A DNA stretch of 64,000 nucleotides from Gammaproteobacteria bacterium (GTDB lineage Bacteria > Pseudomonadota > Gammaproteobacteria > GCA-001735895): contig JAOTYD010000006.1 in NCBI GenBank assembly GCA_029862005.1, positions 69,758 through 133,757 on the forward strand, read 5' to 3'. The notes below the pieces were generated by a model, which saw only the letters and a program-made list of their open reading frames with translations, did no database searches and was not told where the DNA came from. The position numbers and the translations under genes were made by a program. This document shows, piece after piece, positions 4,907 through 56,060 of this stretch. Numbering within the stretch: the first letter of the stretch is position 1; the number at the start of each line of letters is the position of its first letter.

Positions 4907-4907
4907 T

Positions 4908-20439: not shown

Positions 20440-20441
20440 CG

Positions 20442-20876: not shown

Positions 20877-21031
20877 TTCTGTTCATCCCTTGTGCGCCGC
20901 TTCAGCTGGCGCAGTTCTTTCTCGTGTTGCTTGCGCGGCAGGTACCAGTTCAGCCACAGCACCACTGCGACCAGTGCATAGCTTGGCCAAACAAAAACTG
21001 CATATCCGCCCATTTGGAAAAATTCTGCCAT
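20873..21031 (-). CDS. ccmD: heme exporter protein CcmD
   Basis: 52 aa single-TM protein (MAEFFQMGGYAVFVWPSYALVAVVLWLNWY...) found by manual translation between ccmC and ccmE. Its stop overlaps the ccmE ATG (ATGA). It is absent from the ORF track because it is shorter than 60 aa. Confidence 0.75.
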   Translation of the reverse strand: MAEFFQMGGYAVFVWPSYALVAVVLWLNWYLPRKQHEKELRQLKRRTRDEQK

Positions 21032-21757: not shown

Positions 21758-21767
21758 TAAGATCCCT

Positions 21768-26106: not shown

Positions 26107-27711
26107 TTAAAGCGTCCACCGCAGATCGAGCGTGAAGATGTCCTCGTCACCGATATCGTCACCGATTTCCTTTAACGGATGTCCCCAAAGCAGGCGACCA
26201 TTGAAGTTTGCATCCGATACTTCAATCCCTACACCAACACTGTAAATTTCTCCACAAACATCTGGATTGTCGACTTCACATTTGGCATCGCCATAGTCGA
26301 CGCCGGCCGACAGAGAAATTGTTTTGGTGAAAGGGTTTCCACTGAAGGGATTCACCACCGACCGTAATTGTCGGGTCAGGTTACTGTGCAGATACCAGGC
26401 ATTGCTTCCACTCAGTGACGACGAATAGCCACGCACGGTGTAGGGGCTGCCCAGGTACAGCTTATCGTTATCGAACAGTATATCGTCACTGTATTGCAGG
26501 TATAGCTTGATGCTCGCGTACCAGGCAGGATCAGGCAGGTAATAAAACAGCTGGCTGTCGATATTGAATTTTTCAAATTGAAGTCTTGCTTCATTTTCAA
26601 ACCCATCCGCGAGCGTGTAGTAGTCATCGTCTCTGGCCCCGAAGGAATCAAGCCCCCGGTGATAACTGAAACCGGTGCTGAGCTGACCCCATGGTTGTAT
26701 CCAGTCGTGCCGCAGATCGAGTCGCAGCTGGCTGGTTTTATAGCTGGAAACATCAATTAGCTGGTCATCAAAAAAACTGCGCGTGTCCTTAAGCTCCAAT
26801 GCCAACGCCAGGGTCAGCCTGGCCGTCTGGCTACGGGTTAGCAGCTTGCTGACCTGTAGCTGATTGCTGACAGTATCACCCTCGGAAAGAAAACTGTCGT
26901 TGATTCCCTGTACCCGTTGTTCATATTCGATATCGCTATGATTCAATAGCAGCAGGTAATCCCCCAGGGGAAAAGAGTAACTTAACTCGCGACTTCGATT
27001 ACTTTGATAGGTCTGAAATATTTCACCGCCGTTATAGCGAAACTCTATTATGTCATTGATATTGAAAGGATTATCGAGGGTTGCCAGTAAACTCAACTGG
27101 GGATCGATATCCGTTCGCACATTGATTCCAAGCTCGGTGCGAACCGTATCCGACTCCGTGGTCCTGATCGCTACGATGCTGCCACCCTGTTGTGTCCCCG
27201 GCCTGATCTCGAAACTGGCGCTGACCGAGGCCACGCGCTCGATGGCCTCAAGCGAAGTCTCAAGTTCGCGCAGGTTTAGAATCTCGCGGTTGAACATGAA
27301 AGCCGTCGCGATCTTGCCATTGCTGGTACCGCTATTGGCATCGATGATCGCCTCGACTCTGCCCACCAGGATACGAATCTCGATCTGACCATCGCTGATA
27401 TCCTGTTCCAGTAAATAAGGACGTGAGGTGACATAGCCTCGCCCGATAAAGTCATTCGAGATTGCTGACAGAATGCCTCGAATCAGGCTGCCATCGATAC
27501 AGTTGCCGAGGAATGGTCGGATCAATGATGCCTGGCCGGCATCGCTGAGAATTTCGCTGGCCTCAATATCCACCCTTGCCAGGGGGACACATTCAGCTTC
27601 GCTTGCCGCGTGTACCACGCCCTGCAGCAACAGGCTGAGTAGAACTACCCTAAAACCAGATTGACGTAAAAAGGCGCGTGACGGTAGCGTCAAAACTGTA
27701 AAGCGGTTCAT
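26107..27711 (-). CDS. Omp85-superfamily TpsB/ShlB/FhaC-like outer-membrane transporter (POTRA plus beta-barrel), orphan
   Basis: Signal peptide, POTRA-like N-region, C-terminal barrel carrying the conserved L6-loop VRGY motif (GSPYTVRGYSSS). ATG 27711 preferred; TTG 27717 also possible. Confidence 0.72.
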   Translation of the reverse strand: MNRFTVLTLPSRAFLRQSGFRVVLLSLLLQGVVHAASEAECVPLARVDIEASEILSDAGQASLIRPFLGNCIDGSLIRGILSAISNDFIGRGYVTSRPYLLEQDISDGQIEIRILVGRVEAIIDANSGTSNGKIATAFMFNREILNLRELETSLEAIERVASVSASFEIRPGTQQGGSIVAIRTTESDTVRTELGINVRTDIDPQLSLLATLDNPFNINDIIEFRYNGGEIFQTYQSNRSRELSYSFPLGDYLLLLNHSDIEYEQRVQGINDSFLSEGDTVSNQLQVSKLLTRSQTARLTLALALELKDTRSFFDDQLIDVSSYKTSQLRLDLRHDWIQPWGQLSTGFSYHRGLDSFGARDDDYYTLADGFENEARLQFEKFNIDSQLFYYLPDPAWYASIKLYLQYSDDILFDNDKLYLGSPYTVRGYSSSLSGSNAWYLHSNLTRQLRSVVNPFSGNPFTKTISLSAGVDYGDAKCEVDNPDVCGEIYSVGVGIEVSDANFNGRLLWGHPLKEIGDDIGDEDIFTLDLRWTL

Positions 27712-28828
27712 TTCCAACCGTCCCCGCCTTGGTCAGGTCGCGGAAATCGTCATAGTCGAAGCTTATGAAATCGAGCTGCAGGTTCAGACTGCCACGTTCA
27801 ACCGCACTCCAGGACCGGCCAAATTCGTAACTTGCACCCAGGCCAACAGTAGTGCTAGAAAAGGTGCTCAATTCCTTGTCACGTGCGAGGAAATTCAGTG
27901 CACCCCTGCTCGGGAACAAGTCGCTGTAGAATTCGGCGCTGCTTTGATCGTGATATCGAAAACTGGCCTCGACAATCCAGGCGTCACCGTAGGGGAAGGT
28001 ATACCCCAGCTCGTAGGTGGTCGCGTCGATATCCCAGGTATCTTCGAATATTCGAACCCCAGCATGTAACGCGGCACGTTGTGGCAGAAAATAATTGGCG
28101 CGCACGGCAATAGCGTTGCTAGTGCGGGTATCCGGATAGATTTCCGGCTCAAAGCTATAGCTAGTGCATGCTGGTGGATCACTACAAAATCGTACCGAAC
28201 GATAGGGATTATTGAGATAACCATCATCGGTTATCGTTTCCAGGGTTAAAGCCATGACCAGATCCTTGGTCAGGATTTGCGAAATCCCAAACCGATAGCT
28301 GCGCACCTTGGTGTCTTCTTCAAAAGCATCATCCCCATTTCGTCCAACTGTATTATCACCCAGCGCAAAGCTCATGGTGACGGTGGTCAGGTCACCAAAC
28401 ATGTCCTGCGAAATCCCGAGACTTAATGTATTAGCCTCGAAGTCACTTTCATCGCTAACCGTATAGCCGAGACTCATGGTTGTCTTTTGACGCAGGTAAT
28501 CGATGCTGACAGAATTTTCTGTGCGTTCCTCGGTGTACTCGCTTGCACTAACGAGCACATCAACCGAGGCACTGGTGACATTATCGACATAGTGATTCAA
28601 GCCTACTGATAGGCTATCACCCACATTCTTGCGCACCAGAAACGATGGTCCATCGATTTCGGCGCCACCACCATCGTATCGATGGTAGAGCAGGTCCACG
28701 CGCTCTTCCGGCAATACAGCGGCTCGCAATTCCTGGATGGACGATACCAACAGGGAGATAACCACCAACAGCCAACTGGATGATTTCACGAAAGCATGAC
28801 ATTGCTTGGTGGCGGTCATATTTACCAT
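27650..28828 (-). CDS. DUF3570-like outer-membrane beta-barrel protein
   Basis: About 390 aa, signal peptide, alternating beta-strand pattern ending in an aromatic residue (...SIWF). Family assignment is from memory of the DUF3570 size and context. ATG 28828 is preferred over GTG 28885. Confidence 0.55.
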   Translation of the reverse strand: MVNMTATKQCHAFVKSSSWLLVVISLLVSSIQELRAAVLPEERVDLLYHRYDGGGAEIDGPSFLVRKNVGDSLSVGLNHYVDNVTSASVDVLVSASEYTEERTENSVSIDYLRQKTTMSLGYTVSDESDFEANTLSLGISQDMFGDLTTVTMSFALGDNTVGRNGDDAFEEDTKVRSYRFGISQILTKDLVMALTLETITDDGYLNNPYRSVRFCSDPPACTSYSFEPEIYPDTRTSNAIAVRANYFLPQRAALHAGVRIFEDTWDIDATTYELGYTFPYGDAWIVEASFRYHDQSSAEFYSDLFPSRGALNFLARDKELSTFSSTTVGLGASYEFGRSWSAVERGSLNLQLDFISFDYDDFRDLTKAGTVGNEPLYSFDATVTRLFTSIWF

Positions 28829-28865
28829 GCAAGAGTTTTTTGCGGTAACCAGCAGGGCAGGCAAG

Positions 28866-29090
28866 CTAATTGCAGCCGCATCCACCGCCTGTTGCTATGC
28901 CCGCGCCCCTTGCGCCCTCACGAGAATCATAAACATGATGTATATAGCTTGCCGATACCGGATCTCGGTTGAAGCTCATGATGGGGTCTGCGAGATTGGC
29001 GCGTTCGTAGGGCTTGACCCAGGGCTCGATCGCACAACCCCCCAGAATAAAGACACTACTAATTAATGCAAATGCGATTTTCTTTTGCAT
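28866..29090 (-). CDS. DUF4266-like small lipoprotein (C-terminal GGGCGCN)
   Basis: 74 aa with lipobox LGGC and an unusual Cys/Gly C-terminal tail. Confidence 0.55.
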   Translation of the reverse strand: MQKKIAFALISSVFILGGCAIEPWVKPYERANLADPIMSFNRDPVSASYIHHVYDSREGARGAGIATGGGCGCN

Positions 29091-29094
29091 CTTT

Positions 29095-29607
29095 TTACTC
29101 GCGCACCAGTTTTTTCACCATCTTGCGATACTTCTCTTCATCGCCCGGCTTGTAACCCTTATGCAGATAGCGCACGTTGCCATCACGGTCGAGGACAACC
29201 GTGGTCGGCATCGCGATCACATTGTATTTCTTACTGACCAGGTTGTTGTTATCCAGCAATACCGGAAAATCAACCGGGAAGTTCTTGAGGAATCCCCGCG
29301 CTTTCTTGACGTCCTCTTCGACATTAACGCCGAGCACGGTAAATCCGAGCGGTTCATACTTATTATGCAGGTTGTTCAGCAAAGGCATTTCTTCTCGGCA
29401 GGGGCCGCACCAGGACGCCCAGAAATTAATCAGGACCACGTTACCCGTCAATTCGCTGAGTTTGAGGTTTTTACCGGTAAGCGACTTTAACGTGAAATTC
29501 GGCGCCGGACCCTTTAACGAGGCCGCGTGCGAGAGATTTAATCCTGCAAACGATAAAAAACACAGCAGTAACAAGCTGATTCCGGTTCGCGATAACATGC
29601 TGTTCAT
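29095..29607 (-). CDS. TlpA-like periplasmic thioredoxin (redoxin family)
   Basis: Signal peptide plus WASWCGPC. Strong RBS AGGAGA. Confidence 0.88.
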   Translation of the reverse strand: MNSMLSRTGISLLLLCFLSFAGLNLSHAASLKGPAPNFTLKSLTGKNLKLSELTGNVVLINFWASWCGPCREEMPLLNNLHNKYEPLGFTVLGVNVEEDVKKARGFLKNFPVDFPVLLDNNNLVSKKYNVIAMPTTVVLDRDGNVRYLHKGYKPGDEEKYRKMVKKLVRE

Positions 29608-29619
29608 ATCTAATCTCCT

Positions 29620-30273
29620 TTAGAAAAATAAGTTAAATGCCACTGTTAGTTCAATATTGTGGGTCGTTTCCTCGCTGCCGAAGAGGTCCTGCTCGAAGAT
29701 CAAGTCTCGCATTTCAATGTCGAGGCTGAAGCCGTCGGCAAACAAGGTGCGATGCCCTACTGCATAAGCGATGGTAAATCGATCATCGCCCGCAAATTCC
29801 GTGTTACCCACACCCGCAGACAGATAAAGCACAGTATTGAATGTAGTTGAATCGGTTAAAAATGCCTCCCCGGGGAACAGGTTGAATCCAAGGGAAACGA
29901 TGTAGTACTCGACTTCCCGCTCCTCATTGGACAACAGGGGGGCACCGCCACTCAGAATCTCGAAGCTGGTCTTTCCGGAGTCGCCGAGGCCGTAGGAAGC
30001 CTGCACGAAAAAATCTTCAGAAACGTTATAACCAAGCTTGATACCTTTCACGAGATCGGTATCAAAATCCTCGAGCGCCAGGTAACCTACGTAAACAGCG
30101 ATTTCAAAATCGTCTGAATCGATCTGGGATTCATCGAACTCGATACGCTCGATCTGAGGCTCGATCAGACTAGATTGATCCTCTTCATCACTCTGCGCAG
30201 CAACCTGGGTCACCGGCATCATTGCGATCAACCAAGCACTCGCTAGAAAAATACTGCGAAACCGAATTTCCAC
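29620..30273 (-). CDS. outer-membrane beta-barrel (OmpA-like / porin-family barrel domain) protein
   Basis: GTG start with signal peptide (MEIRFRSIFLASAWLIAMMPVTQVAA); amphipathic beta strands ending in ...AFNLFF. Confidence 0.6.
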   Translation of the reverse strand: MEIRFRSIFLASAWLIAMMPVTQVAAQSDEEDQSSLIEPQIERIEFDESQIDSDDFEIAVYVGYLALEDFDTDLVKGIKLGYNVSEDFFVQASYGLGDSGKTSFEILSGGAPLLSNEEREVEYYIVSLGFNLFPGEAFLTDSTTFNTVLYLSAGVGNTEFAGDDRFTIAYAVGHRTLFADGFSLDIEMRDLIFEQDLFGSEETTHNIELTVAFNLFF

Positions 30274-31118
30274 TCGTTTACTACCTCGCTGTTGTCACTG
30301 GTGCCGGATGAAAAAATTACATACTCGTTAGCCTCGAATCGAAACAGAAAACTGCGGCTGACATAGCGTTGCAATCCCAGACCAAATTGCGCAAAGCTAT
30401 TTTTATCGTCTCTTGCTGAAATCAGGATAACACTGGGATCAACCTCAATCTCACCCAATCCAAGAGTGAGATAAGGCGAGTACTTAAAATCCGGAAACGG
30501 CTGCATTACCAGATTTCCCTTGTAGAATGTACTACTCGATTTATCGCCTACTGACTTCCCAAAATGAAACTCACCCGTCAGGTTCTCGGAAAACGAATAT
30601 CCGGTAAACAGAGTAAACACCGGAGCCGATTCAAATTCACCGCCGGTATATCCCAGGATCCACTTGCGCTGGGTAAAATCTTCCAGATCGGACTCGACAA
30701 CCCTGAACTTTTCGCCGGTGAGTAGAAGTGTTTCCCGCATCTGATCACGACTCGCCCACCCGGTCTTGCCTGTGCTGGTTTCGATTCTGAACCAGTCGGT
30801 TTTGCGTCTGATAACACTGACCTCGGTGCCTCGATCAACCACGTAAAAAATCGGGTAGCCTGCGCCTGGGCCGGTATGCAGCTCGATAAAAGGATCAGCG
30901 ATTTTAACCTTGTAATAAACCTTTCCTTCCGCATCAATATTTTTCTCAGGCGCGACTTCACTCTCAGCTGTCCTTTTCGATGCTCCCTCTTCCATTACGG
31001 TAGGTGCTTTTTGTGCCACCAGGATATCTGCGTCGATCGATTGCGACTGTGACGGTCTGGAAGCGACAAATAGCAAAAGAAACAGGCTGGGCAAAAGTAT
31101 CCCCTTGAGACGTTTCAA
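30243..31118 (-). CDS. secreted SH3b-domain protein fused to an outer-membrane beta-barrel domain
   Basis: TTG start with signal peptide. Bacterial SH3-like segment (YYKVKIADPFIELHTGPGAGYPIFYVVDRGTEVSV...WFRIE...GWASRDQM) followed by a barrel ending ...GFAVFF. Confidence 0.6.
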   Translation of the reverse strand: MKRLKGILLPSLFLLLFVASRPSQSQSIDADILVAQKAPTVMEEGASKRTAESEVAPEKNIDAEGKVYYKVKIADPFIELHTGPGAGYPIFYVVDRGTEVSVIRRKTDWFRIETSTGKTGWASRDQMRETLLLTGEKFRVVESDLEDFTQRKWILGYTGGEFESAPVFTLFTGYSFSENLTGEFHFGKSVGDKSSSTFYKGNLVMQPFPDFKYSPYLTLGLGEIEVDPSVILISARDDKNSFAQFGLGLQRYVSRSFLFRFEANEYVIFSSGTSDNSEVVNEWKFGFAVFF

Positions 31119-31149
31119 GTTTATTTTCCCGTGTTATTACAGCCACTAG

Positions 31150-33975: not shown

Positions 33976-34321
33976 CTATTTCCTTAAAGTTGGTACCCGG
34001 TGGAGCGCCCTATGTCATTAATTTTATAGTTTATCTTCGAACTTATATAACCCGCTGCCGAATTCTGACCAGATGTACTTATTTCCTTACGAACGGTATA
34101 CGTGAGAGCGAGCCAGTCTCGTAAAATAGGGTATTAGGTTTAATACGCAAACAGTATTTACGAGTTAACAGCTCTGAGCTTAACAGCATAAATAAAATGG
34201 TCAGGTGTAATTGAGGTTTTTGTGACTTAATTAACGCAGTTTATCCATTTGACGTTAACTCGTTGTGCTAGGTTTAAACCTTCGGCTTTGAGCCCGCGCA
34301 ACAGCGGTTGATAAGGAAATA

Positions 34322-35635: not shown

Positions 35636-35637
35636 AT

Positions 35638-38304: not shown

Positions 38305-38316
38305 GATTCGAATATC

Positions 38317-39945: not shown

Positions 39946-39969
39946 GCTAACCTTTTTGGTGCACTTTAC

Positions 39970-40989: not shown

Positions 40990-41011
40990 TCGCCCAAAAT
41001 CTAGCAGACCT

Positions 41012-41620: not shown

Positions 41621-43487
41621 GCGCCATCAAAAATTCCTGAGGCACGTATCGCGCGGCATTCGTCGCTCATTCTACGGGCTACTGTTAAGCTGTGCCTGCA
41701 GCCCGGTCATCGCGGTTCAAACGGTCGAACATAGAGTCGAGGATCTCGACTATGGTCGCGCACTCTACCAGTTTTTCCAGGATAGCAGGCTGGCGGCAAT
41801 TACCCAACTGATGATAGCCGCGGAAAGACCTCGCAGCCGTAGCCAGGTCAATGAGTCCAACCTGTTGCTCGCAGATCTATACTACGGGTACGGGCTATAC
41901 GAAGAATCGCGCGACCTGTTTGCCCAGCTCCTGACCGCCGAGGTTTCGGACTCGATTCAAAACAGGATCTGGTTCAACCTGGCACGGCTTCGCTACGAGC
42001 AGGGTTACTATGAACCAGCGCTTGACCTGCTATCACGCATTAACGACCAGCTACCGGGTGGTGTGGAGTCAGAAAAGAGATACCTGCTGACCAACCTTTA
42101 TCTTGACAATCGCCAGTACGACGAGGCCGCCGATCTCAGCAACCAGATCAACCCGAAATCGATCTGGAAGATCTACGCGCGCTACAACCTGGCGGTAACG
42201 CTCATCGAAGACGATCGCTACGAGTCCGGTAAGACACTGCTCGAAAAGATCGGCCAGATGGAAGCCGGTACACCCGAATTGATTGCCCTGCGCGATCGCG
42301 CAAATCTTTCGCTGGGGCTCAAACAGCTGCGCATGGAACTGGCCGAGCCGGCACTGGAAAGCCTTTCCAGGATCAGGCTCGAGGGACCCCTGAGCAACGA
42401 GGCGCTACTTGCATCCGGCTGGGCCTGGTATCGACTCGGCAAGTTCGACAAGGCAATGATCCCCTGGCAGGTGCTGCTGCAGCGCAACGCAGTAGATGCA
42501 GCGACACAGGAAGCGATCCTGGCGATTCCCGCCAATTACGCCAAGTCAGGCCAGGACGGGCTGGCAGTACGCCATTATGAAATTGCCGCGACACAGTTTG
42601 ATTTGCAGCTGCAGTTGCTCGATAACGCGATCAAGTCGATCGAAAGTGATGAATTAATTGCAGCGCTGCGGGAAAACGCCATTCTCTACGATCGCAGCAG
42701 CCTGCAACGCTTACCACCGAGTTCCGATGTTACCCCGCAATTACACCTTCTGCTGGCTTCGACAGAATTTCAACGCGAAATTACACGCTACCAGGAATTG
42801 CTCGATATTCGTAACTCGCTTCGATTCTGGGGCAATAACTTCCCTGCTCTGGAGCTGATGCTGTCAGAGCGTCGCCGTGGTTTTGAAAACAAGCTGCCGT
42901 TACTGCAGCAATCCAGCAGTTTCGATCAGCTCGATCTACTGCGTGAACAGAGGGACCAGTTTGCCGGCCGGGTCAGTGCGATCGAGGCGGCACAAGACTT
43001 CGAGGCGCTCGCAAATCCGGATGAGCAGGAACAGCTGTCAAGGCTGCAACGCGTCTCGACGTCTATTGACATGGTCGCACCGGAACGTAATACGGCCTAC
43101 CAGCAGGATATGTTTCGCCTGTTATCCGGATTGCTGCGGTACGAGTTGGAGACCGACTTTCCGGTAAGATTCTGGAAAACAAAGAAACAGCTGATACTGC
43201 TGGATCGTGCACTGGCTGAATCCGAGCAGCGGGTTAATGACTTACGCAGGATCACGGAGCGTACCGACCTCGAGTTCGGTCTGTTCGAGAAACGCATCGG
43301 CGGCCAGACAGAGCGCATCAGTCAATTGCGTAGCAAGGTCTCAACCCTGTTGTCGTCACAGGAGCGACTCATCAATCAAATGGCAATTGACGCCATTCGT
43401 CAACAGCAGCAGCATATCGTGCAGTTACGCCTTAATGCCCGTTTTGAACTGGCCAAAATTTTCGACCGGATGGCGGCAGAACAATGA
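41601..43487 (+). CDS. TPR-repeat protein with C-terminal coiled coil
   Basis: Signal-like N-terminus (…RRSFYGLLLSCACSPVIA), multiple TPR-like helices, long coiled-coil tail. Start is uncertain: ATG 41601 overlaps the upstream gene by 20 nt. Confidence 0.6.
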   Translation: MCVSGNKRHQKFLRHVSRGIRRSFYGLLLSCACSPVIAVQTVEHRVEDLDYGRALYQFFQDSRLAAITQLMIAAERPRSRSQVNESNLLLADLYYGYGLYEESRDLFAQLLTAEVSDSIQNRIWFNLARLRYEQGYYEPALDLLSRINDQLPGGVESEKRYLLTNLYLDNRQYDEAADLSNQINPKSIWKIYARYNLAVTLIEDDRYESGKTLLEKIGQMEAGTPELIALRDRANLSLGLKQLRMELAEPALESLSRIRLEGPLSNEALLASGWAWYRLGKFDKAMIPWQVLLQRNAVDAATQEAILAIPANYAKSGQDGLAVRHYEIAATQFDLQLQLLDNAIKSIESDELIAALRENAILYDRSSLQRLPPSSDVTPQLHLLLASTEFQREITRYQELLDIRNSLRFWGNNFPALELMLSERRRGFENKLPLLQQSSSFDQLDLLREQRDQFAGRVSAIEAAQDFEALANPDEQEQLSRLQRVSTSIDMVAPERNTAYQQDMFRLLSGLLRYELETDFPVRFWKTKKQLILLDRALAESEQRVNDLRRITERTDLEFGLFEKRIGGQTERISQLRSKVSTLLSSQERLINQMAIDAIRQQQQHIVQLRLNARFELAKIFDRMAAEQ

Positions 43488-46309
43488 CTAAAAGCCTGTC
43501 CCATCGCCTGCCCATCATGATGCTCACCGCGACACTTGTTGCCTGTGGTTCAGGTGGGTCCGATTTCGGACCGACGATCGGTGATCTCGAGGAACTGCCG
43601 CCCCTGCTGGAGACCGCGGAACTGGAGCCGCAGGCGAGTTTCAAAGTCGATCGTCAGCAAGTCATAGACAGCTTTCGGGCCCTGGTTGAGATAACGGCCG
43701 ACGGTGGCGGTACCGGAGATGAATTACGACGCCTGGCTGATCTCGAACTGGAATCCAGCCTCGATAACCGAATATCCGATGACGAGACGACCCAGCAGCA
43801 GGGCATTGGCGAAGCGGCACGGGCAATCGGGATTTACGAAGCCTATCTTAAAAAATACCCCGAACGCCCGAGTAACGATATGGTGCTTTACCAATTGTCT
43901 CGTGCCTATGCCCTCGAAGCTGAATCTGAAAAATCCATAGCCGCGCTGGATCGCATCGCGCGCGAGTACCCGGATTCACAATACATGGACGAGGTTCAGT
44001 TCCGGCGTGGCGAGAACCTGTTTGTGCAGCGGGAATACCAGGCTGCAGAGCAGGCTTATGGCAAGGTCGTAAACGATCACCCGGATTCGCTGTTTTTCGA
44101 AAAAGCGCTCTATAAATATGGCTGGACGCAGTTCAAACAGAGTCGCTATCGCGATGCCCTAGCCAGCTACACGCGCTTGCTCGACGTCAATTTTGAACAG
44201 GATAAGATCTGGGAAATCGGTTTCAATCCAGGGCTGCCTAGAGCAGATCGGGAGCTACTCGAAGATGTCGTGCGCGTCGTCTCACTCAGCTTTTCCTACC
44301 AGGACGAAAAATACTATATTGCACAATACTTCAATGAAACCGGAAAGCGAAACTACGAGCCCCTGCTTTACCTGCGGCTGGGCGAACTTTACCTGGACAA
44401 AAAGCGCATCATCGACGGTTCGGATCTGTTCCTGGCCTACACCAAGCAATACCCCTACTCATCGCATACCCCGCGTTTTCACCAGCGTGCAATTGAAACC
44501 TTCCAGCAAGCCGGTTATTCGGACCTGGTGCTAAAAGAAAAGATCGCCTTCGTTAACCGCTACGACGTAAACGGCGAATACTGGGCGTTGCAGGAACCCG
44601 AAACCCAGCGAACCCTGACCAAGACCCTGGTCTTGCACATGACCGAGCTGGCTACCCATTTTCACGCACTGGCCCGGGCCAGCAAGAAAATGAAAGACTA
44701 CGGGATTTCGGCCGACTGGTATCGCCGCTTTCTAAAATCCTTTCCGAATGATCCGGGCGCACCGCGGATGAATTTTCTGCTCGCCGAAAACCTCTACGAT
44801 GCAGGTCAATATCCGCAGGCAATCGACGAGTACCAGAAAACAGCATATAACTATGCGCCACACAAGGATAGTGCCGAGGCAGGCTACGCAGCGCTGATCG
44901 CGTTTGATGCCCTGTTCAAGACGACCAATGCAAGTGACATTCCCGCATTGCGGCGCAAGCGCATTAAATCGGCGGTCCGCTTTACCACGGCTTATCCCGA
45001 TGATCCCCGATTGTCGGTGGTTGAACTGCAGACCGCACAACAGTTCTTCAAGTGGAAGAATTATCCTGACGCGATCGCGTCGGCAAACCGCCTGATTGAA
45101 AACCAGCGCGTTGACAAAACCACCAAGCAAACCGCGTGGACAATACTGTCCGATGCGCAGTTTTCAACGGCGGACTACGCCGCGGCTGAAAAATCCTATC
45201 TCACGCTGCTGACTTTTATGCCGAAACAGGACCAGAAGAGAAAGGCAGTGCGCGAACAGGTCGCCGCGAGTATTTACAAACAGGGGGAAATCGCTCGTGA
45301 GGTGGGGAATCACCTGCTCGCAGCACAAACCTTCACCCGACTTGGCCAGGTGATCCCAGAATCTCCAAAACGCAAGGTCGCCGACTACGATGCGGCAACC
45401 GCGTACATACAACTCGAAGACTGGTCGACCACGATCGCGCAACTGGAAGCCTTTCGCAAGAGATACCCGAGTGATAAAAAGTTCACGGATGGTGTCACCG
45501 AGAAACTCGCGCTGGCCTACAGCAAAAATGGAAACCAGTCCAAGGCGGCGCGGGAAATACTCGCGTTATCGAATCTTCCCGGCACGGCTGAGCGCAAGCG
45601 GGACCTGATGTGGCGTGCTGCCGAACTGTATCAGCAGGACGGCCAGCCCGAACAGGCGATTGCAATCTACAAGCAGTACGTCAAGGTTTATCCCTACCCG
45701 CTGGAACGCTCGATCGAACTGCGTCACAAGATCGCCGAATCATATCGCGCCAAGAACGATACCAAGAACCGTAATTACTGGCTCAACGAAATTATCAGGG
45801 CGGATGCAGCTGGAAAATCGGAACGCAGTGCACGTAGCCGGTACCTGGCCGCTACCGCCAGCCTGGAATTGATCCAGCCACTGCATCGAACCTATAGCAA
45901 AGCCAGGCTGACAATACCGCTTAAAACCAGCCTGGGCAAAAAGAAAAAACTGATGCAACAAGCGATTGACGCCTACAGCAAGGCAATGAAATACCAGGTG
46001 CAGGAAGTAACCACCGAAGCCACGTTCCAGATTGCCGAAATCTACCATGATTTCGCAAGATCCCTGATGGATTCACAAAGACCCAAGGGTCTTGATGAAG
46101 AACAACTCGAAGAGTACGAACTGTTGCTGGAAGAACAGGCCTTTCCGTTCGAGGAGAAGGCAATCGATATACATCTGGCGAACTTCAAGCGCATCCCCGC
46201 CGGCACTTTCGATGAACCCACGAAAAAGAGTTTACAGGTCCTGGGTGAAATGATGCCGTTTCGTTACGCCCGGGCTGAGAGCACTGATAATTATGTTGAA
46301 ATTCAATAA
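43484..46309 (+). CDS. large TPR-repeat lipoprotein
   Basis: Lipobox LVACGS; about 940 aa of TPR-like repeats. ATGA overlap with the upstream gene. Confidence 0.72.
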   Translation: MTKSLSHRLPIMMLTATLVACGSGGSDFGPTIGDLEELPPLLETAELEPQASFKVDRQQVIDSFRALVEITADGGGTGDELRRLADLELESSLDNRISDDETTQQQGIGEAARAIGIYEAYLKKYPERPSNDMVLYQLSRAYALEAESEKSIAALDRIAREYPDSQYMDEVQFRRGENLFVQREYQAAEQAYGKVVNDHPDSLFFEKALYKYGWTQFKQSRYRDALASYTRLLDVNFEQDKIWEIGFNPGLPRADRELLEDVVRVVSLSFSYQDEKYYIAQYFNETGKRNYEPLLYLRLGELYLDKKRIIDGSDLFLAYTKQYPYSSHTPRFHQRAIETFQQAGYSDLVLKEKIAFVNRYDVNGEYWALQEPETQRTLTKTLVLHMTELATHFHALARASKKMKDYGISADWYRRFLKSFPNDPGAPRMNFLLAENLYDAGQYPQAIDEYQKTAYNYAPHKDSAEAGYAALIAFDALFKTTNASDIPALRRKRIKSAVRFTTAYPDDPRLSVVELQTAQQFFKWKNYPDAIASANRLIENQRVDKTTKQTAWTILSDAQFSTADYAAAEKSYLTLLTFMPKQDQKRKAVREQVAASIYKQGEIAREVGNHLLAAQTFTRLGQVIPESPKRKVADYDAATAYIQLEDWSTTIAQLEAFRKRYPSDKKFTDGVTEKLALAYSKNGNQSKAAREILALSNLPGTAERKRDLMWRAAELYQQDGQPEQAIAIYKQYVKVYPYPLERSIELRHKIAESYRAKNDTKNRNYWLNEIIRADAAGKSERSARSRYLAATASLELIQPLHRTYSKARLTIPLKTSLGKKKKLMQQAIDAYSKAMKYQVQEVTTEATFQIAEIYHDFARSLMDSQRPKGLDEEQLEEYELLLEEQAFPFEEKAIDIHLANFKRIPAGTFDEPTKKSLQVLGEMMPFRYARAESTDNYVEIQ

Positions 46310-46934
46310 CATAACCGCACTTTTACTTGCCGCATTACTGCTCGTAGCCTGCCAGAGCGGTCCCGACAAGGCATCGCCTCCAAAACCCGAGGTCGCGGCG
46401 ACGCCGAGTACAGAAGAGCCAGCAACTGAAGCAGAGGTGGTGGATTTTTATCAGCAATTTTATGAAGACGCGGTGGCTTCGCTTAAAAGCGGCAAAACTG
46501 CGCAAGCAGTAGAACTGCTGGTGCAGGTCAGCAACGATGCACCCGACAAGCCCTACGTTTTCACTAACCTCGGGCTCGCTTACTTCAAACTGCAGGAACT
46601 GGACCTTGCAGAACAGGCGTTCAAACAGGCAATTACGCGCGACGATAATGATGCCGTTGCGCATAACCATCTCGGAATCCTGCAGCGCCAAAAAGGGCAA
46701 TTTAAAGAGGCGATGAATCGCTATCAACGTGCCATTAAGATCGATTCCAGCTACGCGTCGGCGCATCTGAACCTCGGCATCCTATTCGATATCTACCTGC
46801 AGGATCTGGACCTGGCGTTACGACATTACCAGAATTACCAGTCTCTGATCGGCGAGGAAGATACCCAGGTGGCCAACTGGATTGTCGACATCAAGCGACG
46901 CCTGAAATCGGGCACTACCAAGTCCCAGGGATAA
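46293..46934 (+). CDS. TPR-repeat lipoprotein
   Basis: Lipobox LLVACQS; three or four TPR motifs. Confidence 0.72.
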   Translation: MLKFNNITALLLAALLLVACQSGPDKASPPKPEVAATPSTEEPATEAEVVDFYQQFYEDAVASLKSGKTAQAVELLVQVSNDAPDKPYVFTNLGLAYFKLQELDLAEQAFKQAITRDDNDAVAHNHLGILQRQKGQFKEAMNRYQRAIKIDSSYASAHLNLGILFDIYLQDLDLALRHYQNYQSLIGEEDTQVANWIVDIKRRLKSGTTKSQG

Positions 46935-46938
46935 ACAA

Positions 46939-47223
46939 ATGAGAAAACTTTCGCTAGCATTTTTCCTATTATTTGCTATTTCAAGTACTGCTAATGTGTG
47001 TGCTCAAGAAAGACTGCAAATGGAAGGCACCGAGATAACCGGAAACAAGGAATTGCCCAGGGTTTTGTATATCGTTCCATGGAAATCGGTTGAACGTTTC
47101 GAGATTTCGTCACCCCCGATTACAAGTATCATGGACCAGCAACTAACCCCCATCGAAAGGGCTGCTTTCAAACGACAGATTCACTATCACGACGCCATTT
47201 TTTCAAAGGCAAAACTGGAATAA
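46939..47223 (+). CDS. small secreted protein
   Basis: 94 aa with signal peptide; lies immediately upstream of exbB. Confidence 0.45.
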   Translation: MRKLSLAFFLLFAISSTANVCAQERLQMEGTEITGNKELPRVLYIVPWKSVERFEISSPPITSIMDQQLTPIERAAFKRQIHYHDAIFSKAKLE

Positions 47224-47259
47224 TCCAGCAGTTGACCAGAGACCGCGGAGGCTCTCGCA

Positions 47260-47907
47260 ATGAACGAAATACTAGTTACAGTAATCAGGTTTTTCCAGGA
47301 CGGTGGACCATTCATGTACCCTATTCTGATTGTTCTGGCTATCGGCCTGGCGATTACGATAGAGCGCTGGTTGCATCTTACCGTTGCAAAAACGAAAAAT
47401 CGCCTCATGATTGCCAAGCTGATGCCACTGGTGGCAAAAGGTGATGTAAACAACGCCAGCGAACTCGCTCGAAAATCAAGCGCTACGGTTAGCCGAATTC
47501 TGCTGCAGGGTATCGAGCATTACAAATCTGCTCGCCGCAGGGATGATTTCGAATCGGCAATGGATGAGAGCATCATGGAGGCAATTCCACGTCTCGAAAA
47601 GCGCACCCATTACCTGGCAATGTTTGCCAATATAGCGACCCTGCTCGGGCTGCTGGGAACAATTATCGGCTTGATCAAGGCGTTCACCGCGGTCGCCCAG
47701 GTCGATCCATCGATGAAAGCGGAGATACTATCAACCAGTATATCGGTCGCTATGAATACCACCGCGTTCGGACTCATCGTCGCGATCCCGCTATTATTTT
47801 TCTACACGGTATTACAAACCAAGACGACCGAAATCGTCGACAGCCTTGAGATGACTGTCGTCAAGTTCGTCAATCATTTATCTCGCGTTAAAAACAGCGC
47901 CGGGTAG
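47260..47907 (+). CDS. exbB: MotA/TolQ/ExbB proton-channel family protein
   Basis: 3-TM topology with conserved C-terminal TM helices. RBS GGAGG. Confidence 0.9.
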   Translation: MNEILVTVIRFFQDGGPFMYPILIVLAIGLAITIERWLHLTVAKTKNRLMIAKLMPLVAKGDVNNASELARKSSATVSRILLQGIEHYKSARRRDDFESAMDESIMEAIPRLEKRTHYLAMFANIATLLGLLGTIIGLIKAFTAVAQVDPSMKAEILSTSISVAMNTTAFGLIVAIPLLFFYTVLQTKTTEIVDSLEMTVVKFVNHLSRVKNSAG

Positions 47908-47916
47908 GTACTACAA

Positions 47917-48408
47917 ATGTCAAGACGGGTACATCGGCGCAAGCATCCGGCTGTCGAGCTGAACATTACTGCCTTCATGAACTTGATGGTAGTGCTGGTG
48001 CCTTTCTTATTGATGACGGCGGTGTTCAGCCATATCACCATCCTCGATTTAAACCTGCCCCCACCGGGCGGGCAGGATACCAAGCAACCAAAAAAGCCTC
48101 CTTATGAACTGCGCATCACGATTCGCAAAAATATGCTGGTGCTCTCCGATAACCGCCTGGGCTTGATTCAACGTATTCCGTCCAAGGGCAAAGAACATAA
48201 TTTCGCCATGCTGAAGGAGACCCTGAAACAGGTTAAAGCTCGGATTCCCAAGCATACCAATATCACGATCCTGGCCGAGCAACAAACCCGTTATAACGAC
48301 CTGATCAGAGCGATGGACAGTTCGCGTTCGTACCGCACAGAAGTCGAGGGTGAGTGGGTCTTTGCCGAACTGTTCCCCGATATATCGATTGGCGATGCGG
48401 CCAGGTGA
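47917..48408 (+). CDS. exbD: ExbD/TolR family protein (copy 1)
   Basis: Single TM (LNITAFMNLMVVLVPFLLM) plus periplasmic domain. Confidence 0.88.
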   Translation: MSRRVHRRKHPAVELNITAFMNLMVVLVPFLLMTAVFSHITILDLNLPPPGGQDTKQPKKPPYELRITIRKNMLVLSDNRLGLIQRIPSKGKEHNFAMLKETLKQVKARIPKHTNITILAEQQTRYNDLIRAMDSSRSYRTEVEGEWVFAELFPDISIGDAAR

Positions 48409-48426
48409 TAACAGGATGTTGATGCA

Positions 48427-48918
48427 ATGAAATTATCCAGACGCGCCAAACGCATGAATCAGCACCACGTTCGTGGGCAGAAGCGAAACGCCATGTTAAA
48501 CATGGTGTCGTTAATGGATATATTTACGATCCTGGTTTTTTTCCTGTTGGTGAATGCGACCAGTACCCAGATTTTGCCCTCACCCAAGAACATCGTGTTA
48601 CCCGAGGCCGCGGCTGAGAAATTGCCTTCCCGCAACCTGGTCATCGCCGTTGACGAACGTGTCATCCGCCTGCAGGGGAAAGCCATTGTTACGGTCAAGG
48701 ATGCGCTCAAAGGTGACCGCAACTCGATCAAGCCTCTGTTTAATGCGTTGCGACTTGCCTCGACGACGGTCAAGGATATCACCGACAAGCAGGGTGTTAC
48801 GATTATGGGTGACCAGGAGATTCCTTACCTGCTGCTGAAAAAGATCATGCTGACCTGTGCCGGTGCGCAATATACCAATATCTCGTTCGCTGTAAACCAG
48901 AAGGTATTAGACAGCTAA
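48427..48918 (+). CDS. exbD: ExbD/TolR family protein (copy 2)
   Basis: Paralogous to copy 1 (MVSLMDIFTILVFFLL). Confidence 0.88.
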   Translation: MKLSRRAKRMNQHHVRGQKRNAMLNMVSLMDIFTILVFFLLVNATSTQILPSPKNIVLPEAAAEKLPSRNLVIAVDERVIRLQGKAIVTVKDALKGDRNSIKPLFNALRLASTTVKDITDKQGVTIMGDQEIPYLLLKKIMLTCAGAQYTNISFAVNQKVLDS

Positions 48919-49910
48919 TGGCAAGGGCAGTGGCTATATCCGAACCGAATCTGCCCTGGATCGACCAGCAGGAAGATCGCAGTTTTCGCCGCCTATTGAT
49001 TATTATGATGCTGCTGTTTTTAGGCGTGGGCGTGGTATTGAATACGATCAAGCTGCCGGAAGTAGTACAGAAAAACCTGGTCGATGTTTCACCGCGCCTC
49101 GCGAAGCTGATCCTGGAAAAGCAAAAAGTTAAACCACCACCTCCCAAGAAAGAAAAACCAAAGGAAGTAAAGAAAAAGGAGCCTGAAAAAAAGAAAGAAA
49201 AACCGAAAAAAAAGGAACCTGAGAAAAAGAAGCCTGAGAAAAAGAAGCCTGAGAAAAAGAAGCCTGAGAAAAAGAAGGAAGTTAAGAAACCCGACGCACG
49301 TGAAGTCGCCAAGAACGCGGGCCTGATCGCGTTAAGTGATGAGCTCGAGGACTTGCGTGAAAGCTTTGCCCTCGACGACGTCGCCAAATTGCCGCAACAA
49401 ACGACCGGCAAGCAGGCAGTCAAGGTCGCGACTGCCAGCGACCTGCTAACCTCGAGCGCGCAAAGAACCAGCGGCGGCATAAAGACAGATACTCTCAACC
49501 GCACCATAAAAACCAATGAATTAACACAACGTCAGACCACGAGGGTTGAAAGCAAGATCGAAGCCGACAGTAAAAAGCTCGCCAAGGCCTCTACCACCCA
49601 GACCCGGGGGGGATCGGCCGCCAGGCGCAGCGAGGATGAAATCGAACGTATTTTCCAGCAAAACAAAGGCGGTATCTTTAATATCTATAATCGGGCATTG
49701 CGCAAAAATCCGTCACTCGCCGGACAGGTTGTGGTTGAACTGACGATCGCGCCCGGCGGTCAGGTGACCGCGGTTAAAATTCTCTCCAGCGAGTTGGGTG
49801 ACGAGACACTCGAGCGTAAATTGATACTAAAGATAAAAAAATTCAAATTCAGCAGTTCCAACGTGGCCGAAATCACGGTCACCTATCCAATCGACTTTCT
49901 GCCCTCCTGA
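48918..49910 (+). CDS. tonB: TonB-family energy transducer with Pro/Glu/Lys-rich linker
   Basis: N-terminal TM helix, KKPEKKK-rich spacer, C-terminal TonB_C-like domain (GQVVVELTIAPGGQVTAVKILSS...). Confidence 0.8.
   Translation: MARAVAISEPNLPWIDQQEDRSFRRLLIIMMLLFLGVGVVLNTIKLPEVVQKNLVDVSPRLAKLILEKQKVKPPPPKKEKPKEVKKKEPEKKKEKPKKKEPEKKKPEKKKPEKKKPEKKKEVKKPDAREVAKNAGLIALSDELEDLRESFALDDVAKLPQQTTGKQAVKVATASDLLTSSAQRTSGGIKTDTLNRTIKTNELTQRQTTRVESKIEADSKKLAKASTTQTRGGSAARRSEDEIERIFQQNKGGIFNIYNRALRKNPSLAGQVVVELTIAPGGQVTAVKILSSELGDETLERKLILKIKKFKFSSSNVAEITVTYPIDFLPS
49218..49277 (+). repeat. perfect 4x15-nt in-frame tandem repeat (CCTGAGAAAAAGAAG, encoding PEKKK) inside the tonB-like linker
   Basis: Four identical nucleotide copies read directly in the sequence. 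Confidence 0.9.
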
Positions 49911-49916
49911 GCGCAA

Positions 49917-50435
49917 ATGAAAAGGCCGATGTCCATCGAAACCGCACGTTTGAGGATTCGATGGCTAAAACCCGGCGACGCAGAATTTATCTATCACCTG
50001 GTCAACGACCCGATGTGGATGCACTACATCGGGGATAAAAATGTCTCGAACCTCGAGGACGCCAAAACCTACATCGAAACCGGTCCTCGTAATATGTACC
50101 GGAACCTGGGATTTGGTTTGAACCTGGTATCGCTTAAAGAGAATGACACGTCAATCGGCATCTGCGGATTATTGAAACGAGAAACTCTCGATGATGTCAA
50201 AATCGGATTTGCCTTGCTGCCCCGGTTCAGAAGACAGGGATATGCATTCGAAGCTGCCACCGCAGTGCTCGAGCAGGGCCGCAGGGATCATAACACATCA
50301 CATGTCCTTGCGATCCTGACAGCGGATAATGAAGCTTCCAAAATGCTGCTGACCAGGCTCGGATTTAAGTACCAGAACAGCTTTCAAAGGGAACCAAAAT
50401 CAGGCATTCTCGATCGATACGTAATCAAATTATGA
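49917..50435 (+). CDS. GNAT-family N-acetyltransferase
   Basis: Acetyl-CoA binding motif region (RRQGYAFEAATAVLE). Confidence 0.85.
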   Translation: MKRPMSIETARLRIRWLKPGDAEFIYHLVNDPMWMHYIGDKNVSNLEDAKTYIETGPRNMYRNLGFGLNLVSLKENDTSIGICGLLKRETLDDVKIGFALLPRFRRQGYAFEAATAVLEQGRRDHNTSHVLAILTADNEASKMLLTRLGFKYQNSFQREPKSGILDRYVIKL

Positions 50436-50450
50436 TTTAAGAAACTACCG

Positions 50451-50918
50451 ATGACATTGCGGCGTATTATGGCGGTATTGATAATCGGCCTGTTATCCCT
50501 TTCGATACAGGCCGCTGATACCGGCGATTACCAGCTGCGAGACATGGATGGAAATCTTTATCGCGTTTCAGATTATCGAGGCAAGTGGTTGATTATCAAC
50601 TTCTGGGCAACCTGGTGTGCACCCTGTATCAAGGAAATACCTGAACTGGAACGCTTTTATCAGCAAAACAAGGCATCTGCGCAGGTATGGGGGGTGACAT
50701 TTGAAGATACCGACAAGATAAAAATCCTCGAGTATATTAATCGTCTAGGTGTCACCTATCCCATCCTCGGGTATGGCCAGGATCCACTCACCGGCTTTGG
50801 CACGGTTACGGTGTTGCCAACCACCTTTGTTATCGATACCAATGGACTTTTCTTCCATCGTTTTGAAGGACCGATAACGAGGCAGGATATATCCAGCGTA
50901 ATTCAGCAATCAAACTGA
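50451..50918 (+). CDS. TlpA-like periplasmic thioredoxin
   Basis: Signal peptide plus WATWCAPC. Confidence 0.85.
   Translation: MTLRRIMAVLIIGLLSLSIQAADTGDYQLRDMDGNLYRVSDYRGKWLIINFWATWCAPCIKEIPELERFYQQNKASAQVWGVTFEDTDKIKILEYINRLGVTYPILGYGQDPLTGFGTVTVLPTTFVIDTNGLFFHRFEGPITRQDISSVIQQSN

Positions 50919-54398: not shown

Positions 54399-56060
<1,662 letters not shown>

Follow-up and report, generated by a model that had tools for sequence, protein, structure and literature searches.

A conserved gammaproteobacterial locus joining an Agl/Glt-type motor set to flavin, haem and thiol redox proteins

Introduction

The subject of this work is a locus of two divergent operons, located at positions 26107 to 50918 of a window of 64,000 nt (the whole stretch of DNA analysed, from the 184.7-kb metagenomic contig JAOTYD010000006.1 of the gammaproteobacterial assembly GCA_029862005.1), in which a motor set resembling the Agl/Glt core complex is joined to flavin, haem and thiol redox proteins of the cell envelope. 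The Agl/Glt core complex of Gammaproteobacteria was described by Luciano et al. 2011 (PMC3169522) as the genes gltC, gltD, gltE, gltG, aglR, aglQ and aglS clustered in one region, together with one extra gene that is absent from Myxococcales. An interaction between AglR and GltG was reported in the same work, and the core was regarded as the ancestor of both the gliding (Agl-Glt) and the sporulation (Agl-Nfs) machines of Myxococcus xanthus; no function was assigned to the core itself. Table S3 of that paper gives for Marinobacter aquaeolei a GltG of 321 amino acids (aa), TolR-like proteins of 162 and 176 aa, an AglR of 221 aa, a skipped locus tag, a GltE of 162 aa and a GltD of 939 aa, and a second copy in the same genome with a GltC of 648 aa. 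Where both flanking tags are readable, a locus tag is skipped between GltE and AglR (Maqu_1599, Sde_2958, TERTU_3744 and Tgr7_0540).

A second closely related system, for protein flavinylation, was described by Méheust et al. 2021 (PMC8238504). In that study, flavinylation of a DUF3570 protein (from Chlorobium luteolum) by ApbE was demonstrated at two [S/T]GA[S/T] motifs. In the gene clusters described, ApbE and DUF3570 occur with a thioredoxin-like protein and a DUF4266 protein that ends in CXC; DsbD may or may not be present, and 316 clusters have no co-localised DsbD. A thiol-to-flavin relay, running from DsbD to the thioredoxin-like protein, was proposed, and its purpose was not assigned.

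A third kind of envelope system is the porin-cytochrome conduit. In these conduits (MtrCAB, PioAB, Geobacter Pcc) a barrel stands beside lipoprotein and periplasmic c-type cytochromes, with 8 to 12 haems per protein. The locus presented here differs from them in having one or two haems per protein, a predicted covalent flavin mononucleotide (FMN) on the barrel and an attached proton-driven motor.

The Agl/Glt core and the ApbE/DUF3570 system are each known separately, and what appears to be new is the physical joining of the Agl/Glt core to the ApbE/DUF3570 system and to a haem set. An earlier reading of the same DNA made from its letters and open reading frames (the sequence-only reading) had not recognised the combination as a described system. 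That view stands for the combination, for which no publication was found, but not for its two halves, the Agl/Glt core and ApbE/DUF3570 flavinylation, which have both been published. Our literature search retrieved no publication linking Agl-Glt terms with ApbE or flavinylation, or ExbB, ExbD, TPR, ApbE and LamG together, and no description of a set of haem proteins with an alkaline-phosphatase-fold protein. No mention of HZS_alpha or of the genera listed by Luciano et al. was found in the portion of the PMC8238504 supplement text that was covered.

Organisation of the locus

Based on the open reading frame listing and the translations, seven close-set genes run on the minus strand from 33975 down to 26107, with intergenic gaps of -31 to +46 nt; these are the seven genes of the sequence-only reading, including the 74-aa DUF4266 gene. 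The plus strand carries 15 close-set or overlapping genes from 34322 to 50918, and not 16 as that reading had counted. Between the two arms lies a spacer (33976-34321) of 346 bp with a GC content of 40%, compared with about 53% for the window, which agrees with the AT-rich divergent control region of 346 bp proposed earlier. Nearly all of the families that had been named from the letters were recovered in Pfam and NCBIfam profile searches, and the three proposed CxxCH proteins were found to carry two, one and two motifs.

The locus is modular, and its parts are listed in Table 1. Module M1 contains the DUF3570, DUF4266 and TlpA genes, two small barrels of the outer membrane and a propeller lipoprotein with two haems that is similar to the alpha subunit of hydrazine synthase (HZSa-like). 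Module M2 contains a monohaem protein of 437 aa (c437), a dihaem LamG lipoprotein and a protein of the alkaline-phosphatase fold exported by twin-arginine translocation (the Tat protein). The apbE gene follows as a separate fourth part, and the nine genes of module M3 form the motor set. The TpsB, GNAT and second TlpA genes are accessory or neighbouring genes outside the conserved unit.

Conservation across genomes

All proteins of the window were mapped by tblastn onto the best 80 loci (individual loci are given as L numbers), and the counts of full loci below refer to the 31 species-level loci that are flanked on either side by 9 kb or more. As a block, the gene set is kept in 80 species-level genomes, in which the identity of the LamG protein falls as low as 42%. 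M1 and M2 occur together in all 31 full loci (DUF3570, DUF4266, TlpA, both small barrels and the HZSa-like gene beside the c437, LamG and Tat genes), and M3 adjoins them in 28: at least four of the TPR/ExbB/ExbD/TonB genes are present in 25 of these loci, and the first two genes are present at the locus end in the other three. ApbE is found in 24 of the 31 full loci, at variable positions. Two homologues with 50-55% identity, looked up independently with precomputed Pfam labels, have the same gene-by-gene content.

The adjacency of M3 is kept in three architectures. In the commonest, M3 follows M2-ApbE on the plus strand; in the second, it is inverted and divergent from M2 on the c437 side (L022, L037, L038 and L102); in the third, it is appended after M1 at the DUF3570 end (L042, L067, L068 and L083). 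The flanks of the same loci are not shared. Outside the set no gene family is found in more than eight loci, the commonest being an MFS gene (eight loci), and since no flanking family recurs beyond this number, the conservation is that of the cluster itself and not of general synteny. The envelope unit of redox proteins and an ExbB/ExbD/TonB-type motor, as proposed in the sequence-only reading, is thus supported by a conserved, co-inherited gene block.

Concerning the distribution across taxa, the LamG cytochrome has thousands of database relatives, and 546 species-level genomes contain relatives, nearly all of them under gammaproteobacterial labels. Among these labels are Thiohalobacter, Ca. 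Thiodiazotropha, Sedimenticola, Chromatiaceae, Steroidobacteraceae, Porticoccaceae and Aliikangiella marina, and most carriers are Gammaproteobacteria from sediments or symbioses. In the genome collection searched, the nearest named relative comes from the Olavius algarvensis Gamma 3 endosymbiont, a scaffold of which encodes a LamG protein about 75% identical. A tblastn search of plasmids with the GltD-like and Tat proteins gave no match.

The TpsB, GNAT and second TlpA genes were considered as members of the unit and were rejected on conservation. TpsB, which is the Omp85-like transporter placed in the locus by the sequence-only reading, is indeed present in the window, but it is found in only four of the 31 full loci and is not a conserved member of the unit. 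The GNAT gene follows the TonB-like gene in L090, L091, L096, L097, L105 and L108 and was not found in L087, L088, L094, L099, L100 and L107, in all of which the sequence continues beyond the TonB-like gene. At that place the second redoxin is seen in L087, L088, L097 and L099 but not in L094, L100, L102 and L107.

The motor set

By gene order, protein sizes and the presence of an AgmX/PglI domain, M3 is identified at the sequence level as the Agl/Glt core complex of Luciano et al. 2011. Read in the order of the Marinobacter genes, the proteins of the window have 320-330, 163, 163 and 215 aa, then comes a gene for 94 aa, and then proteins of 213, 941 and 628 aa. Order and sizes match those of Table S3 (GltC about 640, GltD about 940, GltE 160-230, an extra small gene, AglR about 220, two TolR-like proteins about 165 and GltG about 325 aa), and the C-terminal domain of the GltG-like protein passes the cut-off of the AgmX/PglI (GltJ/GltG) model (NF033768, 4.4e-21, 74.8 bits vs 40). 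Further shared traits are one TolQ/ExbB-like and two TolR/ExbD-like genes and the lack of gliding-specific genes. The locus differs from the published core in that its operons join to it two small barrels of the outer membrane as well as genes for flavin, haem and thiol proteins and for an alkaline-phosphatase-fold protein, on which the covered part of the paper's text is silent, and in that a gene for a conserved secreted protein (h241) additionally precedes the GltC-like gene. The C-terminal 130 aa of h241 are strongly conserved, and both in the rearranged loci and in L107 its gene stays with the Glt-like genes.

There is also a difference between the two ExbD/TolR paralogues. At the position of the expected protonatable Asp of the transmembrane helix, the first has Asn22 (20 of 24 homologues), whereas the second has Asp31 (all 10 homologues); this suggests, at the level of the sequences, a heteromeric stator in which only one type of subunit can be protonated. 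For the GltG-like protein, whose gene start (like that of DUF3570) was taken from the gene call of L084, the TonB-type C-terminal domain is above the cut-off of TIGR01352 (38 bits vs 27.1) and below that of Pfam TonB_C (23.0 bits vs 24.6). A search of PDB sequences with this protein returned only low-complexity noise.

With Tol-Pal and ExbB-ExbD-TonB the set shares the MotA_ExbB channel, the ExbD/TolR stators, a Pro/Lys-rich transducer with a putative TonB-type C-terminal domain, YbgF/CpoB-like TPR repeats and a TolB-like PD40 propeller protein. It differs from them by the lack of Pal or a TonB-dependent receptor and by having two stator paralogues, one without the Asp; moreover, all of the equivalog models (TolQ, TolR, ExbB, ExbD and TonB) are under their cut-offs. 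As the sequence-only reading had noted, no TonB-dependent receptor is recognised: none of the 22 locus proteins, and nothing in the recurrent flanks, matched Plug or TonB_dep_Rec in Pfam.

The flavin branch and the small barrels

The DUF3570, DUF4266, TlpA and ApbE proteins are those of the flavinylation system of Méheust et al. 2021, and covalent FMN on this DUF3570 protein is predicted from its sequence. All four extracytosolic families of that system are present (DUF3570, DUF4266, thioredoxin-like and ApbE), as are the two tandem flavinylation motifs of DUF3570 and the CXC end of DUF4266. The motifs of the window protein are DNVTSAS and DVLVSAS (aa 101-115), in which D101, S105, A106, S107, D109, A114 and S115 are conserved at 94-100% (52 sequences); TSAS and VSAS follow an Asp, and their position 2 is Ser, in contrast to the Gly of the [S/T]GA[S/T]-type motif. 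In DUF4266 the lipobox Cys19 and the C-terminal GGGCGCN, which holds the CXC, are 100% conserved in 35 sequences, and in the TlpA/ResA-like protein C67 and C70 are conserved at 95% or more.

The arrangement differs from the published one in several respects. ApbE is located nine genes (11 kb) from DUF3570 and on the opposite strand, beyond the ±5-gene range used in PMC8238504, which would presumably have split the locus. The redoxin matches Redoxin/AhpC-TSA and not PF13899, and DsbD is outside the cluster. The locus also has a motor, cytochromes and small outer-membrane barrels, which the published system lacks. In a preprint by Haft (bioRxiv 10.1101/2023.06.07.544157), the DUF4266, DUF3570 and TlpA genes are noted to adjoin those of proteins with the JDVT-CTERM sorting signal in a few species.

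Concerning the barrels, the smaller one has a conserved motif (I.P.IERR) in a periplasmic N-terminal extension before the barrel; its model, TIGR04565, found no mention in the literature search. An aromatic C-terminal residue is typical of outer-membrane barrels, and the ends of DUF3570 and of both small barrels, which are aromatic, are consistent with this. The TpsB gene is an orphan that is seen only in a close clade, and it overlaps the end of the DUF3570 gene. No TpsA cargo with a TPS domain or Haemagg_act was matched by Pfam in the locus, so a two-partner secretion pair is not recognised.

The haem and enzyme proteins

The numbers of haem motifs (two in the HZSa-like protein, one in c437 and two in the LamG lipoprotein) are kept across homologues, in proteins of 437-941 aa. 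Taken together, the cofactor sites (haem motifs, lipobox Cys, the two flavinylation motifs and the CXC of DUF4266) are 94-100% conserved. All full-length homologues of the HZSa-like protein keep the lipobox C41, H636 and the two CxxCH motifs without variation, and in the LamG lipoprotein C25 and both CxxCH motifs are invariant.

The only PDB sequence match of the HZSa-like protein is 5c2v_A (E 1.9e-5), in three collinear segments that cover the propeller, the middle haem domain and the C-terminal domain. It shares with hydrazine synthase alpha (5C2V chain A) this collinear layout of propeller, middle haem and C-terminal haem domains, and it reaches 56.5 bits with PF18582 HZS_alpha (cut-off 26.6). 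It differs from that subunit in being a lipoprotein of non-anammox Gammaproteobacteria. A role as a true hydrazine synthase was considered and rejected: the protein scores 37 bits with the hydrazine synthase equivalog NF052339 (cut-off 800), only the middle domain passing; Pfam and NCBIfam searches of the locus gave no match to the beta and gamma families; and the alignment to 5c2v_A has no Tyr four residues past the CxxCH, where we take the haem-ligand Tyr of the alpha subunit to be. In a study of 2025 (PMC12758564), the top structural matches of hydrazine synthase alpha included no homologue with an experimentally confirmed function.

Both c437 and the Tat protein belong to sizeable families without a Pfam model. 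Comparison of folds with the PDB gave no solved-structure match for c437, and for the Tat protein it gave nearest relatives that include EptC, MCR-1, BcsG, LtaS, GacH and sulfatases. Judged from its fold, the Tat protein is probably a metallo-hydrolase or transferase. NCBI names three of its homologues (P0121, P0131 and P0156) 'general secretion pathway protein GspF', which looks like a propagated misannotation. Paralogy of c437 and the LamG cytochrome was considered and rejected, as hhalign aligns the haem motif only (probability 2%).

An Asp at position +2 after the lipobox Cys is an inner-membrane retention signal in E. coli, and both haem lipoproteins of the window have one. This signal was dropped as an indication of location: among HZSa-like homologues Gly is the most frequent residue there, and in a 14-sequence alignment of the LamG protein the residue varies. 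The planctomycete pairs of PSCyt/PSD (DUF1549/DUF1553) and DUF1501 presumably also place a large secreted CxxCH protein beside an alkaline-phosphatase-superfamily protein exported by the Tat route. The two share no more than this architecture, and no Pfam match to these families was found in the locus even at E<=5.

The divergent spacer and neighbouring genes

In an alignment of 11 sequences from relatives, the spacer contains invariant blocks (Table 1), and TCTGACCA and ACGGTATAC each occur once in the window. The spacer scan detected neither a sigma-70 consensus nor a terminator, and there was no Rfam match in the spacer or in the window as a whole. The sequence-only reading had placed the ccm haem-maturation operon and dsbD near the locus, and both are present in the window.

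Table 1. Features of the locus and its surroundings. Positions are those of the window; values after model names are E-values unless given in bits. FAD, flavin adenine dinucleotide; TM, transmembrane.
Feature	Position	Strand	Description
Module M1	27650-33975	-	DUF3570, DUF4266, TlpA, two small outer-membrane barrels, dihaem propeller HZS-alpha-like lipoprotein
Module M2	34322-39945	+	c437 monohaem protein, dihaem LamG lipoprotein, Tat-exported alkaline-phosphatase-fold protein
Module M3	41012-49910	+	Nine genes; Agl/Glt-core-like motor set
TpsB-like Omp85-family transporter	26107-27711	-	ShlB 2.9e-55 (188 bits), POTRA_2 4.3e-14; ShlB/FhaC-type; accessory
DUF3570 protein	27650-28819	-	PF12094 2.3e-40; predicted outer-membrane barrel and predicted ApbE substrate; ends ...SIWF
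DUF4266 small lipoprotein, 74 aa	28866-29090	-	PF14086 3.8e-22
TlpA/ResA-like periplasmic thiol-disulfide oxidoreductase (CGPC)	29095-29607	-	Redoxin 3.1e-32; ResA subfamily 2.4e-35
Small outer-membrane beta-barrel	29620-30273	-	TIGR04565 OMP_myx_plus 3.4e-42, 144 bits vs cut-off 60; ends ...NLFF
Fusion of SH3_3 and small outer-membrane beta-barrel	30243-31118	-	SH3_3 1.1e-10; OMP_b-brl 1.7e-5; TIGR04565 1.1e-6; ends ...AVFF
HZSa-like dihaem lipoprotein, 941 aa	31150-33975	-	PD40 1.1e-5, HZS_alpha 4.1e-15; propeller, middle and C-terminal haem domains
Spacer footprint TCTGACCA	34064-34071		Inverted partner TGGTCAG at ~34198-34204
Spacer footprint ACGGTATAC	34093-34101		Invariant block
Spacer footprint TTTTGTGA	~34218-34225		Invariant block
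Spacer footprint CTGTGCTAG	~34263-34271		Invariant block
Spacer footprints TCTCGTAAA and GAGCTTAACAGC	within 33976-34321		Conserved
c437, periplasmic monohaem protein, 437 aa	34322-35635	+	Mostly helical; without Pfam family
LamG dihaem lipoprotein, 888 aa	35638-38304	+	Central Laminin_G_3 2.7e-17 (concanavalin-like), C-terminal helical region
Tat-exported alkaline-phosphatase-superfamily-fold protein, 542 aa	38317-39945	+	Alpha/beta core fold found; most conserved protein of the locus
ApbE FAD:protein FMN transferase, periplasmic	39970-40989	+	PF02424 3.2e-78; separate fourth part of the locus
h241, secreted, 202 aa	41012-41620	+	No Pfam match; always precedes the GltC-like gene
GltC-like TPR protein, 628 aa	41601-43487	+	TPR_16, TPR_19; published GltC 640-648 aa
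GltD-like TPR lipoprotein, 941 aa	43484-46309	+	YbgF/BamD-like repeats; TIGR02795 tol_pal_ybgF 5.6e-28, 97.9 bits vs 90.1; published GltD 939-964 aa
GltE-like TPR lipoprotein, 213 aa	46293-46934	+	NF033758 gliding_GltE 1.2e-13; published GltE 162-230 aa
s94, secreted, 94 aa	46939-47223	+	Motif GNKELPKVLYIVPWK conserved; at the place of the published cores' extra gene
AglR-like ExbB/TolQ proton channel, 215 aa	47260-47907	+	MotA_ExbB 2e-30; 50-99% identity across loci
ExbD/TolR paralogue 1, 163 aa	47917-48408	+	ExbD 6.8e-17
ExbD/TolR paralogue 2, 163 aa	48427-48918	+	ExbD 9.6e-15
GltG-like TonB/TolA-type protein, 320-330 aa	48948-49910	+	N-terminal TM helix, Lys/Pro/Glu-rich linker, AgmX/PglI-type C-terminal domain
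GNAT acetyltransferase, cytoplasmic	49917-50435	+	Acetyltransf_3 1e-24; variable neighbour
Second TlpA-like redoxin (CAPC)	50451-50918	+	AhpC-TSA 3e-19; frequent, not universal neighbour
System I cytochrome c maturation operon	16282-23083	-	CcmA, CcmB, CcmC, CcmF, CcmG-like redoxin, CcmH, CcmI/CycH; complete; ~3 kb from the locus
CDF cation-efflux gene	23616-24542		Between ccm operon and locus
MFS gene	24807-26102		Between ccm operon and locus; flank common only to close relatives
DsbD, 816 aa, unusually long	57437-59887	+	Two DsbD_N stretches, DsbD_TM, C-terminal thioredoxin domain (Pfam)

Discussion

From the observed parts list, cofactor-site conservation, folds and genomic linkage, we give about an even chance to the explanation that the locus encodes a single envelope machine, whose proton-driven Glt/Ton-like motor would serve a flavin-haem module of the outer membrane. 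The electron path, the coupling of motor to barrel and the physiological role given here are our proposal. The M3 motor, comprising the AglR-like channel, the two ExbD proteins (one with a protonatable Asp), the GltG-like transducer, the GltC/D/E-like TPR scaffolds and the two small secreted proteins, would turn proton-motive force into mechanical work reaching the outer membrane. ApbE would put FMN on two conserved serines of DUF3570, whose partners would be the CXC lipoprotein DUF4266 and the TlpA-type reductase, with supply from the cytoplasm through DsbD according to the proposal of PMC8238504. The HZSa-like lipoprotein, c437, the LamG lipoprotein and the Tat enzyme may form the catalytic or electron-transfer end, acting on a periplasmic or surface substrate, and reducing equivalents could pass from DsbD to TlpA, DUF4266, DUF3570-FMN and the haems, or in the reverse direction. 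Concerning the coupling, the GltG-like protein and the TPR scaffolds might act either on DUF3570 or on the small barrels, by way of the N-terminal extensions of the latter. In Myxococcus, outer-membrane Glt barrels control the surface exposure of the lipoprotein CglB, and in a manner like that of this Glt platform the motor action may gate, position or surface-expose the lipoprotein redox module.

Several observations weigh against a single machine. Co-localisation is no proof of physical or functional coupling, and the case rests on genomic association. DsbD is encoded 6.5 kb outside the operons, past a LonC-like protease (51756-54185) and GroEL (54399-56045), and ApbE is not found within 10 kb in seven of the 31 full loci. 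The Glt-specific equivalog models score far below their cut-offs, with 50.8 bits vs 225 for the GltE model and 54 bits vs 650 for that of GltG (NF033760, 8.7e-15, aa 21-326). In L061, L070 and L074, no M3 adjoins M1 and M2; in L070 (the cultured species Aliikangiella marina), neither ApbE nor the motor set is found within 10 kb, and the neighbours of M1/M2 are a YtkA-like protein and a dihaem peroxidase (CCP_MauG; 78-2146) and an RND pump. Conversely, L107, a locus from the metagenomic scan with the TonB-like protein, has a nine-gene Glt-type core (2105-10942, including a 202-aa h241-like gene) standing alone on a 259-kb contig, flanked by housekeeping genes (SprA-related, cobalamin adenosyltransferase, ParA, HAD, NUDIX and PtsP); it is the sole stand-alone core among the best 80 loci of that scan. 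The modules are therefore separable. In addition, the low haem counts and the alkaline-phosphatase-fold enzyme leave several chemistries possible.

Loci without an adjacent M3 and the stand-alone core are what would be expected if the Glt core, the DUF3570/ApbE system and the haem and phosphatase-fold trio were independent neighbours, brought together by shared regulation, biogenesis needs or ancestry, and the published core complexes, too, are described as self-contained clusters (PMC3169522). We regard such neighbourhood without coupling as unlikely, given that M3 remains adjacent in 28 of the 31 full loci down to 42-45% LamG identity, that this adjacency outlasts three rearrangements while the flanks turn over, and that in the canonical form the genes overlap or are separated by a few bases across the module boundaries.

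An energised reductive uptake system, to which we likewise assign a low probability, would also use both the motor and the redox proteins. DUF3570 or a small barrel would be an outer-membrane gate opened by the TonB-like protein, flavin and haem would reduce or release a metal or nutrient such as Fe(III), and the alkaline-phosphatase-fold enzyme would free it from a carrier. The ExbB/ExbD/TonB-type motor with its matches to TonB_C-type domains and the CDF gene nearby (23616-24542) are compatible with this, and flavinylation clusters have been tied to iron reduction and assimilation, 25 DUF3570 clusters having a VIT1 iron transporter (PMC8238504). However, the locus contains neither a Plug/TonB_dep_Rec receptor nor an inner-membrane importer, no Fur-box-like element is present in the conserved footprints, and no transporter family recurs in the flanks.

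The motor may instead move or assemble a polymer or envelope component in a surface-polymer or envelope-maintenance machine of the Nfs or Tol-Pal kind, which we consider quite improbable. Here the LamG domain would bind the polymer, the phosphatase-fold enzyme would modify it (like phosphoethanolamine transferases, LtaS and sulfatases), and thiol, flavin and haem would serve redox maturation. The envelope modifiers EptC, MCR-1, BcsG, LtaS and GacH and the sulfatases among the structural relatives of the Tat protein fit such a machine, as do the LamG domain, the YbgF-like TPR repeats above cut-off and the TolB-like PD40 propeller, and the sister Agl-Nfs system transports spore-coat polysaccharide, according to the part of PMC3858216 covered. 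Yet no glycosyltransferase, polymerase, flippase or Wza-type gene is found in or beside the locus, and a role in maturation alone hardly explains the two flavin sites and the five conserved sites for haem.

A conduit for extracellular electron transfer of the MtrCAB or PioAB kind, with barrel and lipoprotein cytochromes moving respiratory electrons to or from insoluble minerals, is very unlikely despite the outer-membrane barrel with predicted covalent flavin sites beside two lipoprotein cytochromes and the predominance of sediment and symbiont carriers, since the proteins of 437-941 aa hold one or two haems each and form no multihaem wire (the Mtr type has at least 8 CxxCH), the cluster contains no inner-membrane quinol dehydrogenase, the proposed donor (the DsbD/TlpA thiol route) is low-flux and the module holds a hydrolase-like enzyme. 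The sequence-only reading had suggested extracellular electron transfer or redox-coupled transport; its idea of a unit of redox proteins with a motor holds, while electron transfer in the Mtr sense does not find support. For the flavin-haem module served by the motor, the low haem counts and the hydrolase-like enzyme lead us to favour an enzyme complex over an electron wire.

The role of the gammaproteobacterial Agl/Glt core has been unassigned since 2011 and bears on the evolution of gliding motility and of spore-coat assembly, and the purpose of DUF3570-based extracytosolic electron transfer has been unassigned since 2021. The linkage described here merges both questions into one testable hypothesis, that of an outer-membrane redox module served by a motor, and it recurs in dozens of gammaproteobacterial species, including the Olavius Gamma 3 symbiont, Ca. 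Thiodiazotropha, Sedimenticola and Thiohalobacter-labelled genomes. It also involves the c437 family, which, besides lacking a Pfam model, has no solved structural relative in the PDB comparison. Tentatively, and with some doubt, we suggest that the ancestral Agl/Glt core may be a proton-driven energiser of an outer-membrane flavin-haem enzyme module, and so represent a new class of TonB-like-powered redox machinery. If the core does energise this module, that would be the original job of a motor that was later adapted by Myxococcus for gliding and for the spore coat, and both the DUF3570 flavoprotein and the HZS-alpha-like proteins of non-anammox bacteria would for the first time have a physiological context.

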